Origin: a virus
Taxonomy: Duplodnaviria; Caudoviricetes
Virus record (IMG/VR): IMGVR_UViG_3300031993_000006
Span: 128,001 to 192,000 of that record
Length of the DNA: 64,000 nucleotides
Strand: one strand, 5' to 3'
A program made the translations under genes and the position numbers. The notes below the pieces were generated by a model. That model was not told the origin of the DNA. It made no database searches and saw only the letters and a list, made by a program, of their open reading frames with translations. Below, in pieces: positions 2,918 through 20,402 of this stretch (position 1 is the stretch's first letter; every line of letters begins with the position of its first letter).

Positions 2918-3841
2918 ATGAATCAGATGGATTTTAACTCAAGACCACAGAACTTTAGCCGGCGTATGCCCGGCACGATGGCAATGCCTAATCAGCAGGC
3001 ACAGCCTCAACCGGGTGGCATTTATGTCAGGCCGCTCAATAACGGTGGCGCTCGCCCGATGGGTGGTGGCAATTTTGCTCCCCGTCCCGGCATAAACCCC
3101 GGGATGAATCCGGGTATGAATCCGGGTATGGGTCCTGGGCAGGGTGGATATGCCAATGGGATGAATGGTTCCTATAATCCCGGAATGAACGGTGGCTACA
3201 ATAATGGGATGGCTCAGGTGCAAGGCGGCTATGGCCGTAGGCGCAATTTCCGCACCGAAAATATTAATGCCGGTGAAACTATTGTTGGCATGGACCGGAT
3301 GACTCCTAATGGCGAACGCTGGGACCAGGTTCGTCTAGGCGATGTTCGCGATAATCTCTCCAAGGAAGAAGCCGATGCTCGTCTTGACCAGCTCGACGAC
3401 TTTATGGAACAGATGAAGGGTACGGTTGACCTCGGTGTTGCTTCTCCGGGGAACGTGGACCAGATTCAGTCATCCATCAGGCTTCTCGTCCAGCTTTTGC
3501 TTGACCCGAATTGCTGGCTCCCGACCGATGTTATCCAGAATCATCGTGACATCATTACGAAGAAAGGTGCCATCGTCGCAAAGAATTTGTGGCAATTTGG
3601 CAATGCTATTGCGATTGCTACTAGGACTAACCAGTTGCCTCCTATCGAGGAATTAATGCCGCAGGCTCGTGACCAGCGTCGTGCCGCTGCACAACAGCAG
3701 GGTGCCGGTTCTCAACAGCAACAGGTGCAACAGCAGGTACAGCAGCAGGTCCAGCCGCAGTATCAGCAGCAACAGCAGTATCAGCAGCAACAGTATCAGC
3801 AGCAGCAGTATCAGCAGCAACAGCAGGCATATCGCCGATAG
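2918..3841 (+). CDS. low-complexity Q/G/N/P/M-rich protein with a central folded segment
   Basis: ATAAACT at 2890-2896, GGAG upstream and ATG at 2918; GMNP repeats at the N-terminus and a QQQQY-type tail. Confidence 0.8.
   Translation: MNQMDFNSRPQNFSRRMPGTMAMPNQQAQPQPGGIYVRPLNNGGARPMGGGNFAPRPGINPGMNPGMNPGMGPGQGGYANGMNGSYNPGMNGGYNNGMAQVQGGYGRRRNFRTENINAGETIVGMDRMTPNGERWDQVRLGDVRDNLSKEEADARLDQLDDFMEQMKGTVDLGVASPGNVDQIQSSIRLLVQLLLDPNCWLPTDVIQNHRDIITKKGAIVAKNLWQFGNAIAIATRTNQLPPIEELMPQARDQRRAAAQQQGAGSQQQQVQQQVQQQVQPQYQQQQQYQQQQYQQQQYQQQQQAYRR
3712..3827 (+). repeat. imperfect CAG/CAA repeat encoding poly-Q with periodic Y/V
   Basis: Repeated CAGTATCAGCAGCAA-like units. Confidence 0.9.
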
Positions 3842-16894: not shown

Positions 16895-16959
16895 AAAACA
16901 AATATAGCAAAGAAATGCAGCCGGTTGGCTGCCTTTGCTGATTGTTGCGATTAGAATAT

Positions 16960-17376
16960 TTAGTTTGCCGGTGTAGTGGCCGGTATGGCGACCGGCTTGG
17001 CAAAGGAGTTTCGTGTCCAGGTAACACGGAGCTCTTCATAGGCGAATCCCTTCCTGGCTTCCTTGTTTTTGAGGATGATTTGTCCGCGGAACAGGATGCT
17101 GGAACGGGTTTCCGGCGGCAAGCTCATCAGCTCATTGAATGCGCCCAAAAGCTGATTCCATTTCTTGTACATCGGATTGTGCTTAAAGCGACTCATTCTT
17201 TGCACGATGCGGTAGAAGTTTCCCTTGTAGTTCGGGTGGTCGTCGTCCTGCGGGACGACAGATGGCGTTTCTTCGTCGAGGTTGGCGGTTTCTTCAGCGA
17301 TAGCCTGCACTTCGGCGGCGTCCTTTTCCTGGGCGGCCGTTACTTCTTGCATATTTTCTTCGGAAGTCATGTTCAT
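16960..17376 (-). CDS. hypothetical protein
   Basis: Promoter at 17410-17423 and AGGA RBS favour the start at 17376 over 17430. Confidence 0.65.
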   Translation of the reverse strand: MNMTSEENMQEVTAAQEKDAAEVQAIAEETANLDEETPSVVPQDDDHPNYKGNFYRIVQRMSRFKHNPMYKKWNQLLGAFNELMSLPPETRSSILFRGQIILKNKEARKGFAYEELRVTWTRNSFAKPVAIPATTPAN

Positions 17377-17528
17377 AGAAAGTTTCCTGTGGTTAGTTTT
17401 GCTATAACACAAATATAGCAAAATTACCATCGGTCGTAGCAGGGATGTTTCTCCACGGGAGTGATTGCAAGCTTGTCGAGTTCATTGAGGTTGTTGTACC
17501 AGTTTTCCTGATACTGTTTCATCGGGTT

Positions 17529-19512
17529 ACTAACAGCTAACCTAAAATCTACCTAAGCTTACTCAAATATAGCAAAATCTACGAGAAATATGTGTATTTT
17601 TAGGTTGCAAATCGGCATAAAATTTTGTATATTGTTATAAACTTGATGTATAGAGGTTCGATGAATTAGTGGCTTTCTTCATTGAACGACAATAAGAGAC
17701 CATTTATGATGGCTCGTTTGATGCTGAAAGCCACAAAAAGTATCGAACGAGCCATTTCTGTATTGTATGAGCAAGCACTGTTGGACATTGAAGGATAGGT
17801 ACGAATCGCAGTTCTCCGCTGCGTTCTATCCTATCATGCTGTCCGACACTAAGCGAGCCGAAATTATCCATAGGGCAGAAGAAATCCGTGCGGTAAGGAA
17901 CGACATATCGGAAGTGTTCTTCTCGGATATGCTCGGCTTCCAGGACATGAGCAAGTTCGAGGCGTTCAACTTCTTCAATCCTACGTTCAACACCCGGCTT
18001 TCCAGCCATTACTTGAAGAAGGCTATCGAAGAAGTATGGAAAGCATACCAGCTAAGGTTTGGTGCAATCCGCAAGAAGATTGAGTTTGTAAAAGTAGAAA
18101 AGCTTGTGCCGTCATTCTATAAGATAAATTCTCATGGACATAAGAAGGGCGAGCTGAAATCTATCGAAGTACATACCAAGAAGACCGAACTAACGAAAGT
18201 ATTGACCTGGCTTGCACGATATGGAAAGGACGAATCCGTTTACTGGCTAGAATCCGTTATCCCTACTGTTGTAGAAACCAAGCAGAAATTCTACCGAACC
18301 ATTCTTGAAAAGATACACAAGTTCGGTTTCGACCGCCTTATGCGATTGGCCTTATCCCGTAGAGAAGCTGTATATGCGAAATATATCGAACGTGGAAAGA
18401 TTACCTTTGATTCGCTCACTTTCAGCGGGCGAAGCCGTATCACGCGTCCTATAGTGGATGCCCGTAGGAACGAGACCGGAAAGTTCGACTATTTCATCGA
18501 GATTTCCTGGGACTGGTCCAGCCAGGCATACCATGGACCTAGTGAGCATACACTGTGCATCCCGTTCAAGTACAACAAGGCATACCACAAGTCACTGCAA
18601 AGATACTGCAATGGTGGAGACACTTCCTATACAATCGTAATCCGAGGAAAGGACATCCACGTAGTCCTGGCAAGGGACGGCTACCGCTACAAGAGCGATG
18701 CAGAAATTACCGAGGAGAATACGGTCGGCATAGATGTCAATTCCAAGCATAACATGTTCGCATTGAGCACCGGAGAGTTCATTCCCCATGACGAGAAGCT
18801 GATTGCCGAACTTGAAGACGAGCTGTTTAAAATCGACAACAAGCAGAAGAACTACGATGCCCGGTTCAAGGAATACGAGGAACATGATGCCTTCAAGATT
18901 TCCAGTAAGGACAAGAAGCGGATAGAAGCCATTACCTTGAAGCTGAACGAATCCAACAAGCGTAGAATTGCCACCATGTGCAAGGACCTTGCCGACCGTG
19001 GATTCAAGCACATTGTAATGGAAAATCTTACAGGATTTCAAGGAAGCAGACTAAATGCCGATGACAAGAAAGGTTTCAACTTAGGACGGTTGCATCTACG
19101 AATTGGACTGTCATCGTTAAAGGATGACGTAGAACATATATCGGCACATTATGGACTGGGCTTCTCGCTCATACAGCCAGAGTATACCTCGAAGATGTGT
19201 CCGGTATGCGGCGGTATAGACGACCGGAACCGCCAGACTCAAGAAGAATTTAAGTGTGTGGACTGCTTGCATGCCGACAATGCAGACTGCAATAGTTCAA
19301 TAAACATCAAGTTCCGCCTTACCTCGACCGTGTTAAGAGGGTACCTACTTGAAGTAGGGGATAGCGGATATAGGTGCTTCCAGCCAAAGAGCTTGTTCGG
19401 GTGGCAAGTAAGGAAGTGCCTAGAAAAGTGCCGTTGCGATGGTCTGTTCAAACGGTCCATAGGAAATCACGAAAAACTTACGATGAGTAAGTTTGAGTAG
19501 ATTTCAGTCAAC
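17529..19512 (+). mobile_element. non-autonomous TnpB element with imperfect terminal inverted repeats (possibly IS607-related)
   Basis: GGTT at 17525-17528 and 19513-19516; IRs at 17542-17565 and 19484-19507 (20/24 match); no transposase gene. Confidence 0.8.
17767..19500 (+). CDS. tnpB: large TnpB/Cas12f-like RNA-guided nuclease (577 aa)
   Basis: RuvC-I GIDVN, RuvC-II VMENL, CPVC...CVDC zinc finger and RuvC-III NADCNSSINI. Confidence 0.88.
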   Translation: MSKHCWTLKDRYESQFSAAFYPIMLSDTKRAEIIHRAEEIRAVRNDISEVFFSDMLGFQDMSKFEAFNFFNPTFNTRLSSHYLKKAIEEVWKAYQLRFGAIRKKIEFVKVEKLVPSFYKINSHGHKKGELKSIEVHTKKTELTKVLTWLARYGKDESVYWLESVIPTVVETKQKFYRTILEKIHKFGFDRLMRLALSRREAVYAKYIERGKITFDSLTFSGRSRITRPIVDARRNETGKFDYFIEISWDWSSQAYHGPSEHTLCIPFKYNKAYHKSLQRYCNGGDTSYTIVIRGKDIHVVLARDGYRYKSDAEITEENTVGIDVNSKHNMFALSTGEFIPHDEKLIAELEDELFKIDNKQKNYDARFKEYEEHDAFKISSKDKKRIEAITLKLNESNKRRIATMCKDLADRGFKHIVMENLTGFQGSRLNADDKKGFNLGRLHLRIGLSSLKDDVEHISAHYGLGFSLIQPEYTSKMCPVCGGIDDRNRQTQEEFKCVDCLHADNADCNSSINIKFRLTSTVLRGYLLEVGDSGYRCFQPKSLFGWQVRKCLEKCRCDGLFKRSIGNHEKLTMSKFE

Positions 19513-19683
19513 GGTTGAACTTGAGGTCGTGCATACGCTGGAAGCTAGCGTGTAGGTCGCCCGCTAGGTCGCCGGCCGGTTTCACCGCCTGGAACCACAT
19601 CAGGGTCTGGTTCTTGGGACGGGCTTCCTGTTCTACGGTAGCGTCATTGTAGGTAGGGTCGATGTCGAGCTTGCGGGAGTTTA

Positions 19684-20349
19684 TCAAAGTTCCAACAATC
19701 TGTCGAGTTCTTCCTTGGTCGCTCGCTTGGCTCTGGTGATTGCCGGACGGGTAAGCATCTCTTGTCCCGGTACGGCAAGCGGGTCGGGGTCCTTCTTTTT
19801 GGCTAGATGGGGGAAGTTGGCATCTTTGAATATGTCAATCGGGGTTTTCGGGTCGTCCACATCGGAAAGGTCAGGTTCATCCGGTTGTTCTTGCTTTTCC
19901 TCTTCAGCATGGCGTTTAGCTTCGGCAGCCGCCTGCTCCTGTTCTTTTTTCCAACGGTCGTGGTGCTCACAGTTGACTGATGAGTTCGAAATGTGGTCCA
20001 TTTCGGATGTGTCGTCGAGGTTGCTGAAATTCCATTTGAACCTGATGTCGGCAGCCGTCAGCTTATATTTATGGATTAGGCCGGGAGAAACCTGCCGACG
20101 AAGGAATTCGGTCAGTCGAGGGGATATCGGGCGTGGGTTTTTGGGTGGCTGGATTTTCAGGACTGCGAGATAGAATTCGTCGCATATGTCCTCGTCACCG
20201 CCTAGTTCTCGCAATATTTCTCGGGCGATGCCCGTTATTTGCATTTCGCCCATTGCGGTTGCCGGGATACGATGTTTTTTCGCGTTGATTTTCAGAAGGG
20301 TGCTTATGAACGCCTGATTGTTGATTATGAGTCTATCGATATCTGCCAT
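19684..20349 (-). CDS. hypothetical protein
   Basis: 221 aa; promoter motif at 20355-20367, 5 nt before the ATG. Confidence 0.75.
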   Translation of the reverse strand: MADIDRLIINNQAFISTLLKINAKKHRIPATAMGEMQITGIAREILRELGGDEDICDEFYLAVLKIQPPKNPRPISPRLTEFLRRQVSPGLIHKYKLTAADIRFKWNFSNLDDTSEMDHISNSSVNCEHHDRWKKEQEQAAAEAKRHAEEEKQEQPDEPDLSDVDDPKTPIDIFKDANFPHLAKKKDPDPLAVPGQEMLTRPAITRAKRATKEELDRLLEL

Positions 20350-20402
20350 AATCTCAAATATAGCAAAGAAATACCATAAACTATGAATACCGAGGTGTTC
20401 AA

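Follow-up and report, generated by a model that had tools for sequence, protein, structure and literature searches.

We found that a mobile element in a 64,000-nucleotide stretch of phage DNA (hereafter, the window; bases 128001 to 192000 of a 260-kb, 91%-complete virus record in IMG/VR) carries a gene for a TnpB nuclease and, judging from its sequence, derives from an IS607-family lineage but lacks tnpA. It is very probable that this lineage resides in large phages and that the element was inserted at a GG dinucleotide into a dispensable gene; it would move by means of TnpA supplied in trans together with homing by TnpB and its guide RNA (omegaRNA). Direct support for the origin of the element comes from the element boundaries, an empty site, the family link to tnpA-bearing relatives, the structures of two RNAs, and the selection acting on tnpB. 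The coordinates of the features are listed in Table 1.

Boundaries, empty site, and family of the element

By a peptide-pattern scan of viral contigs, we gathered 17 loci whose TnpB proteins are 72 to 92% identical to that of the window. In blastn comparisons, the match between the window and these related loci spanned 17523/4 to 19515/6 and did not extend into the flanks, which differ between related loci and indicate independent insertions. Because the match is limited to this interval in many contexts, the boundaries given in a preliminary description of this DNA are those of the mobile unit, and homology to all 17 loci begins and ends there. That description had also placed GGTT on both sides of the element, and the tetranucleotide is indeed present at 17525 to 17528 and again at 19513 to 19516. 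Comparing the junctions of the other copies, as it had proposed, we observed G-GG at 14 of 14 independent left junctions. Of 17 right junctions, 16 have GG, and T comes next in every one. The fourth base of the right junction is variable (T, C, G, or A), only GG plus T being constant, and the fourth flank base is unequal between the left and right sides in most copies. Across the copies, at least 11 different insertion sites have intact IS607 junctions.

The empty site was searched for with the 59-amino-acid (aa) upstream fragment of the split host gene, which led to three viral loci, and with a degenerate pattern of the rejoined site, which found the same contig once. In one locus, L022 (95% amino acid identity), the gene is uninterrupted, contains GGTT once, and reads ...DLKFNPMKQYQEN... 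at the site, exactly as had been predicted; in the other two, L023 and L024 (67% identical), it is likewise uninterrupted. Window positions 19678 to 19513 aligned by blastn with L022 positions 3001 to 3166, and window positions 17528 to 16900 with L022 positions 3163 to 3780, so that the two window flanks overlap on L022 by 4 nt (3163 to 3166), which are GGTT on the plus strand of the window. Closely related phages therefore differ in the presence or absence of the element.

Excision leaving a single GGTT is in frame. The preliminary description had stated that excision restores a 91-aa open reading frame (ORF) on the minus strand; L022 bore out the in-frame rejoining but not the length, as the intact host gene encodes 172 aa (L022:2749-3267). 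An intact homologue, whose absence would have counted against that description, thus exists. The window host gene lacks 264 bp at its 5' end (L022 2737-3000), including the start codon and 84 codons; the insertion point lies in the 3' third. The 264-bp deletion, at window positions 19679-19680, is separate from the transposon insertion and lies between short CTCC/TTCC microhomologies. Given these two lesions, the host gene is evidently dispensable; it had no match in Pfam or PHROG.

The family of the element was indicated by two of the related loci, L010 and L011. L010 has a 236-aa ORF ending one base before tnpB, and L011 (the same site as L019) has a 213-aa ORF followed by two small ORFs and then tnpB. 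Both ORFs are IS607 serine-recombinase tnpA genes, with 176 and 187 bits, respectively, against the NCBIfam model transpos_IS607 (cut-off, 110) and with MerR-type helix-turn-helix and Resolvase domains. Their tnpB genes are 81 to 82% identical to that of the window, and their junctions, GGGTT / AYCAAC(TG)... and ...GTCAAC / GGT (the spaced slash marks the element end), are the window termini. These elements are autonomous relatives with the same ends, of the kind that the preliminary description had suggested looking for.

In the published scheme for IS607, recombination takes place between the GG dinucleotides of a double-stranded circle and of the target, the target-adjacent motif (TAM) of the ISXfa1 TnpB is GGG, and the fixed nucleotide of the right flank is part of the scaffold of the guide RNA and not of the guide itself (PMC10711439). 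Further IS607 TnpBs also have G-rich TAMs (PMC11061315). The window element has GG at both junctions, a single GG in the empty site, and no true target duplication, and it has short repeated subterminal motifs with no perfect terminal inverted repeats. Since the junction rule and the tnpA-bearing relatives match the published scheme, the IS607-like alternative raised earlier is the right one, with the crossover core sharpened from GGTT to GG(T) and a target G before it. The window copy itself has no serine-recombinase TnpA, while L010 and L011 do, and we therefore file it as a non-autonomous IS607 derivative and not as a complete IS607. A tree of tnpA-bearing and tnpA-less copies gave no resolved order of the two forms.

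The left terminus and the AAATCTAC-type repeats that follow it, two of which (17545-17552 and 17575-17582) are exact, are both conserved among the other copies, including the tnpA-bearing L010 and L011; the repeats are presumed to be TnpA binding sites.

The preliminary description had offered a second alternative, in which TnpB is carried by a different type of transposon with terminal inverted repeats (TIR). Such an element would be a cut-and-paste transposon that captured tnpB and generated a 4-bp GGTT target-site duplication (TSD). TIR/TSD transposons are known to have captured Fanzor2 and TnpB (PMC10711439), and the window copy has GGTT on both sides and a 24-nt inverted repeat near its ends. 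We recovered this repeat with the 20 of 24 matches reported earlier (17542-17565 with 19484-19507), but it is subterminal, set back by 13 nt at the left and by 5 nt at the right, and the outermost bases, ACTAAC... and ...GTCAAC, do not form an inverted repeat. Besides, every site has the same flank sequence, whereas a true duplication would reproduce whatever target was hit, and in most copies the two sides differ in the fourth base. No DDE or other transposase was found in the 17 loci, of which two have an IS607 tnpA. We consequently discarded this alternative as very improbable.

An element of the IS200/IS605 type, moved as a single strand by a Y1 transposase ("peel and paste"), would use the left GGGTT as its target and TAM, and the right GGT would be coincidental. 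IS605 elements are typified by a constant motif that abuts the left end on its 5' side, tnpB-only IS1341-like elements are common, and the window TnpB scores higher with the NCBIfam model IS200_TnpB than with IS607_TnpB (33.7 versus 18.9 bits, both far below the cut-offs). However, the transposase linked to tnpB in the relatives is an IS607 serine recombinase and not Y1, and the right flank is fixed (GG-T in 16 of 17), for which IS605 has no need (PMC10711439). Furthermore, the motif occurs once in the empty site and is therefore common to both junctions, and the left end consists of phased direct repeats and not of the subterminal hairpin of IS605. Lacking the Y1 partner, the subterminal hairpins, and the free right flank of that family, the element can hardly belong to it.

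TABLE 1 Positions of the element, its parts, and other elements of the same genome (window coordinates unless a locus or contig is named)
Feature	Position	Strand	Remarks
Downstream remnant of split host gene	17424..17528	-	Last ~33 codons, ...PMKQYQENWYNN...DRW-stop; aligns to L022/L023 gene ends
Left target half	17524..17526	+	G, then GG crossover dinucleotide; predicted TAM GGG (GGGT with next base)
Left end	17527..17600	+	TT-ACTAACAGCTAAC terminus, then ~10-bp phased AAATCTAC-type repeats
Left arm, subterminal inverted repeat	17542..17565	+	Partner 19484-19507; 24 nt, 83% complementary
Outward phage promoter-like motif	17564..17577	-	TTTTGCTATATTTG; copy specific to window element
tnpB promoter region	17605..17643	+	TTGCAA-N17-TATATT, then TATAAACT (phage late-promoter-like)
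Structured tnpB 5' leader RNA	17656..17755	+	Hairpins A and C with loop-loop helix; covariation
tnpB	17767..19500	+	577 aa; Pfam Cas12f1-like_TNB; RuvC triad; zinc finger
Predicted omegaRNA (reRNA) scaffold	19313..19515	+	Covarying; overlaps last ~60 tnpB codons and right end
Right end	19484..19512	+	Inverted AAATCTAC motif 19497-19504; terminus ...CAGTCAAC
Right GG crossover dinucleotide and constant T	19513..19515	+	GG in 16/17 right junctions, T always next
Upstream remnant of split host gene	19513..19687	-	Codons ~85-140 of 172-aa gene; aligns to L022 3001-3166
Predicted guide segment of omegaRNA	19516..19535	+	Copied from right flank; position by IS607 rule (PMC10711439)
Mini element	G000:C1:237949-238158 = L042:1501-1710	-	omegaRNA model match
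Mini element	G000:C1:198897-199098 = L043:1501-1702	+	omegaRNA model match
Mini element	G000:C1:87380-87581 = L044:1501-1702	-	omegaRNA model match
Second IS607 element	L035:158-2064 = G000:C1 about 195290-197200	-	Beyond window end; ends look different

The TnpB nuclease and two structured RNAs

The sole long ORF in the element, at 17767-19500, encodes the 577-aa TnpB, and the three RuvC acidic residues noted in the preliminary description were identified as D323, E419, and D507. Neither these residues nor four cysteines (C478, C481, C497, and C500) vary among 46 aligned sequences with identities down to 24%; the triad aligns to the GVD, MEDL, and NAD motifs of solved Cas12f, and the zinc finger lies between RuvC-II and RuvC-III. 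No stop codon interrupts the 14 close tnpB copies, and the ratio of nonsynonymous to synonymous substitution rates (dN/dS) is 0.05 to 0.11, by which measure tnpB is under strong purifying selection.

Among the curated models, only Pfam Cas12f1-like_TNB, which covers the C-terminal domain, passed its threshold. An exhaustive phmmer search retrieved 96 cluster representatives at E < 1e-30, mostly of 510 to 600 aa and matched end to end, and the two relatives that we examined are tnpB-only on phage-like contigs. The protein belongs to a divergent, long, apparently phage-borne clade of TnpB. An AlphaFold2 (AF2) model of it had a mean predicted local distance difference test score (pLDDT) of 86. 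Its structural matches were CasLambda (Z, 20 to 21; 470 to 488 residues aligned; template-modeling [TM] score, 0.61), Cas12f (Z, 16), ISFba1 TnpB (Z, 15.7), ISDra2 TnpB (Z, 14.9), and Fanzor2 (Z, 13.5), and according to the model the fold is that of TnpB/Cas12.

Conservation is much higher in the final ~205 nt than elsewhere in the element, and we identified in this segment a fold of ten helices and 63 pairs, in which 98.3% of the cells are paired and 17 pairs show compensatory changes. None of 500 shuffles reached its score, and G-U pairs assign the RNA to the tnpB strand. In the closing helix, GCCGTTG pairs with CAACGGT, where GGT is the flank and pairs with GCC; a divergent copy (L040) has A-U in place of one G-C pair of this helix. 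Synonymous divergence drops from 0.5-0.7 to 0.09-0.33 in the codons overlapped by the RNA (most comparisons). This ~205-nt structure ending at the flank GGT would represent the structured 3' guide RNA of TnpB systems, which reads over the transposon end. It had no Rfam match and is thus not RAGATH-18. The 20 nt that follow GG in the window are identical in L022, where they are preceded by CGGG, and on this ground the empty allele of L022 is predicted to be a perfect target of the guide.

A second structured RNA was identified in the 5' leader of tnpB. It consists of hairpin A (17656-17665 with 17678-17687), hairpin C (17709-17725 with 17739-17755), and a loop-loop helix in which GTGGCTTTC pairs with GAAAGCCAC (17669-17677 with 17726-17734). 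All three helices covary: the 36 pairs are 97.2% paired and 11 of them are compensatory, the score was reached by 0 of 500 shuffles, and G-U pairs place the RNA on the plus strand. Like the omegaRNA, the leader had no Rfam match. A complementarity of 75% between leader positions 17702-17721 and omegaRNA positions 19448-19467 was taken as chance, as the leader side is invariant and the other side varies with no covariation.

The promoter region of tnpB is conserved in all leader-bearing copies. Using a covariance model of the leader (R1), we obtained matches in the leaders of two other tnpB genes. One (L038:1501-1630, minus strand, equal to G000:C1:226557-226686) is the leader of a 453-aa TnpB type in the same genome, which is 25% identical to the window TnpB, and the other (L011:648-785, minus strand) lies upstream of a different tnpB, ~2 kb from the L011 element. 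These two leader-bearing types are 24% identical to each other; both leaders keep the loop-loop pairing through compensatory changes, and TATAAACTT is also present upstream of both. Model R1 had no match in the tnpA-bearing elements of L010 and L011, in the locus of a distant clade member, P0010 (L036), or in a second IS607 element of the genome (L035). Our best guess is that the leader controls tnpB translation or mRNA stability.

If the element were an IStron or a group I intron spliced from the host mRNA, the split gene would still be functional. The gene is in frame once the element is removed, and IStrons joining TnpB with a group I intron are known. Nevertheless, no Rfam family, group I introns included, matched either strand of 17300-19800 at E <= 1, both covarying RNAs are on the strand opposite to the host gene, and the start and 84 codons of the gene are lost as well. 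With no ribozyme found in the orientation of the host gene, splicing is extremely unlikely.

Proposed homing, possible phage benefit, and the weight of the evidence

We propose that the IS607-derived element, window positions 17527-19514, was inserted through a serine-recombinase crossover at the GG dinucleotide; it retains IS607-type ends, a promoter and leader, an intact TnpB, and the ~205-nt omegaRNA scaffold. As the fixed flanking GGT would provide the last paired bases of the scaffold, the next ~16 to 20 flank bases would act as the guide. Movement would depend on TnpA in trans, for example from an autonomous relative in a co-infecting phage, through a predicted circle junction ...GTCAAC-GG-TTACTAAC... 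and with a predicted restored donor ...CATCGGGTTGAACTT.... TnpB with omegaRNA may then cut uninterrupted alleles in co-infecting relatives, such as that of L022, on the basis of the TAM GGG(T) and a guide match, and recombinational repair may copy the element into the cut allele. Such homing could also guard the element from loss. RNA-guided homing between phages is a reasonable inference from these sequence features.

Several points weigh against this reading. A cognate tnpA was not detected in the 260-kb, 91%-complete record, and the sole IS607 tnpA there is 34% identical and part of a different element, so mobilization by TnpA in trans is presumed. The curated models do not place the protein in IS607_TnpB (18.9 bits; cut-off, 350), and guided_TnpB gave 85.7 bits, below its cut-off of 100 and over residues 280 to 516 only; the family assignment is made because of the linked tnpA and the anatomy of the element and not because of the nuclease sequence. 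The ends of the omegaRNA, the length of the guide, and the TAM are predictions. Finally, some copies have lost the recognizable left end (L012, L016, and partly L015) or the right-junction GG, and part of the element family may be immobile.

The same observations can be read differently. The phage might keep TnpB and its guide for its own benefit, for example to cut co-infecting competitors that lack the insertion, in which case the element would have ceased to move as a transposon; the absence of tnpA and the presence of phage-type promoters would then reflect domestication. Marker exclusion of this kind is exerted by T4 homing endonucleases. Such a role fits the lack of a cognate tnpA in the genome, the strong purifying selection on tnpB in tnpA-less copies, the late-promoter-like box before tnpB, the phage promoter motif gained in the left end, the intact tnpB of some copies with eroded left ends, and the guide-only cassettes of the same genome. 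On the other hand, the 11 or more insertion sites with intact IS607 junctions bespeak repeated recent movement, and near relatives differ by the presence or absence of the element. We consider benefit to the phage unlikely as the explanation, bearing in mind that it and selfish homing predict the same sequence features and are inseparable by sequence.

The phage promoter motif in question is the outward-facing box that the preliminary description had located at 17564-17577, and we confirmed it there on the minus strand. Its 12-mer TTGCTATATTTG has 25 copies in the 260-kb genome, against about 0.03 expected for a random 12-mer, and its 14-mer TTTTGCTATATTTG has 13; the 12-mer is mostly located 1 to 50 nt upstream of an ATG-initiated ORF on the same strand. 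The motif ends in TAnnTTTG, which we take to resemble the Bacteroidota -7 box. The box is specific to the window copy; at its position, other element copies have AAATCTACYGAAAT, three or four substitutions away, which suggests that outward transcription was selected for. Because the box is a multi-copy phage promoter-like motif, it is plausible that it re-drives the downstream fragment, as had been suggested. The benefit of the outward box is nevertheless doubtful, since a further copy at 17410-17423 serves the next gene and the second deletion has already disabled the split gene.

The window sites of TTGCTATATTTG include 9756, 14858, 16910, 17421, 17575, 20366, 21925, 58281, 61817, and 62279. 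The motif often stands just 1 to 6 nt before ATG, and this spacing suggests very short leaders.

Related systems and other elements in the genome

With a covariance model of the omegaRNA, we detected three ~300-bp mini elements without ORFs in the genome, outside the window. Their left junctions read G-GG-TT / G(A/C)TAGCAGTTAAC and their right junctions ...GTTTCAG(C/T)TAA(C/T) / GGT, and all three possess a TATATTTA box of their own and a complete omegaRNA scaffold (64 to 68 bits; E, ~1e-17) in which compensatory changes occur. Three similar matches to the model were obtained in G001, a different large phage record. The minis are candidate trans guides for the 577-aa TnpB. To the left of one of them, the segment at L043 ~1290-1370 resembles the 3' part of a tRNA gene (GTAGCTCAGTTGG...GGTTCGAGCCC). 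The genome also contains a second, complete but unrelated IS607 element, in which a 195-aa tnpA (L035:1477-2064, minus strand) is directly followed by a 438-aa tnpB; this tnpA shares only 34% identity with the tnpA that accompanies tnpB in the family of the window element.

Among known systems, the window element resembles the IS607 family (for example, ISXfa1 and ISFba1) in having GG at both junctions and once in the empty site, a G-rich, GG-containing motif at the TAM position, short repeated motifs near both ends, a guide RNA at the 3' end of tnpB that extends across the right end and includes the fixed right-flank base(s) in its scaffold, and relatives in which an IS607 tnpA immediately precedes tnpB. 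It differs in that it lacks tnpA and is hosted by large phages, in that its TnpB has 577 aa, as compared with ~390 aa in ISFba1, and fails the IS607_TnpB and guided_TnpB cut-offs, and in that its tnpB has its own promoter and structured leader and its guide RNA is not RAGATH-18. With the solo-tnpB elements of the IS1341 type and PATEs (Meers et al., PMC10055086), it shares a non-autonomous state, ends and a guide RNA that are kept while tnpB is optional, and a presumed need for TnpB homing and for a transposase supplied in trans. The three ORF-less, omegaRNA-only minis are the counterparts of PATEs, which are ORF-less guide-RNA elements of IS200/IS605. Those elements, however, are of the Y1/IS605 type, have hairpin ends, and insert 3' of a motif, whereas the window element has IS607-type chemistry and junctions.

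CasLambda (Cas12l) of huge phages gave the best structural match to the AF2 model, and both proteins are phage-borne. In contrast to CasLambda, however, the window element has no CRISPR array, and the profile match is limited to the C-terminal RuvC part (E, 3e-9) and is weaker than those to Cas12f or TnpB; a sequence profile search for such kinship did not single out CasLambda. The higher Z score may reflect merely a similar size, and we treat the link, which comes from the model, as a lead only. Fanzor2/IS607 elements of giant viruses likewise encode IS607-derived TnpB homologues, longer than typical TnpB, in large double-stranded DNA viruses. The structural match to Fanzor2 is weaker (Z, 13.5), the host of the window element is a bacteriophage, and its TnpB has the canonical E (IVMENL) and GIDVN and not the DPG signature of Fanzor (PMC10711439).

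As a wider reading, which we regard as possible but doubtful, the IS607 lineage might have three tiers, namely, autonomous elements with tnpA and tnpB, tnpB-only elements with a phage late-type promoter and the loop-loop leader RNA, and ~300-bp guide-only minis, and TnpB might use trans guides and act late in infection on empty alleles. If this were true, several guide cassettes would serve one long TnpB, converting or destroying the empty alleles of co-infecting relatives, and the long phage TnpB clade could lie near the root of CasLambda. The leader RNA would be a new tnpB-specific control element, because two other TnpB types that are only 24 to 25% identical have it as well.

The window element itself follows the published IS607 blueprint and adds no new mechanism. 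Its value is that of a natural test case, in which closely related phages hold an occupied allele (the window) and an empty one (L022). This allele pair, together with an intact nuclease and a predicted guide match, makes TnpB homing between co-infecting phages testable, in analogy to the T4 homing endonucleases. In addition, it points to unexplored biology of RNA-guided nucleases in phages, which includes an apparently phage-borne clade of long TnpBs beyond the curated models, a covarying leader RNA common to unrelated tnpB genes, and guide-only minis of the IS607 type.

Further searches gave a limited yield. An exact search with the end motifs recovered only contigs already known. Neither megablast of 16900-20400 nor tblastn of the 59-aa fragment had a match among 50,697 reference phages, and tblastn of TnpB against the same phages gave weak C-terminal matches only. 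A genome scan with alignment A5 found one contig, in a metagenome-assembled genome from water-buffalo caecum. As for the neighborhood of the element, a 221-aa neighbor gene is absent from five other large phage records carrying the element, and phage hallmark genes nearby encode a head-tail adaptor, a DNA polymerase exonuclease, and a DHH phosphoesterase.

Two kinds of copies were observed besides. In L012, L015, and L016, tnpB is intact and accompanied by the leader and the omegaRNA, while the left-end repeats are lost or strongly diverged, and the right junction of L015 has GA in place of GG; these may be immobilized copies. L006 and L014 are two copies located within ~6 kb of one another at different sites of one viral contig (IMGVR_UViG_2061766007_004163, about 42.0-55.2 kb), an arrangement consistent with movement within a genome.

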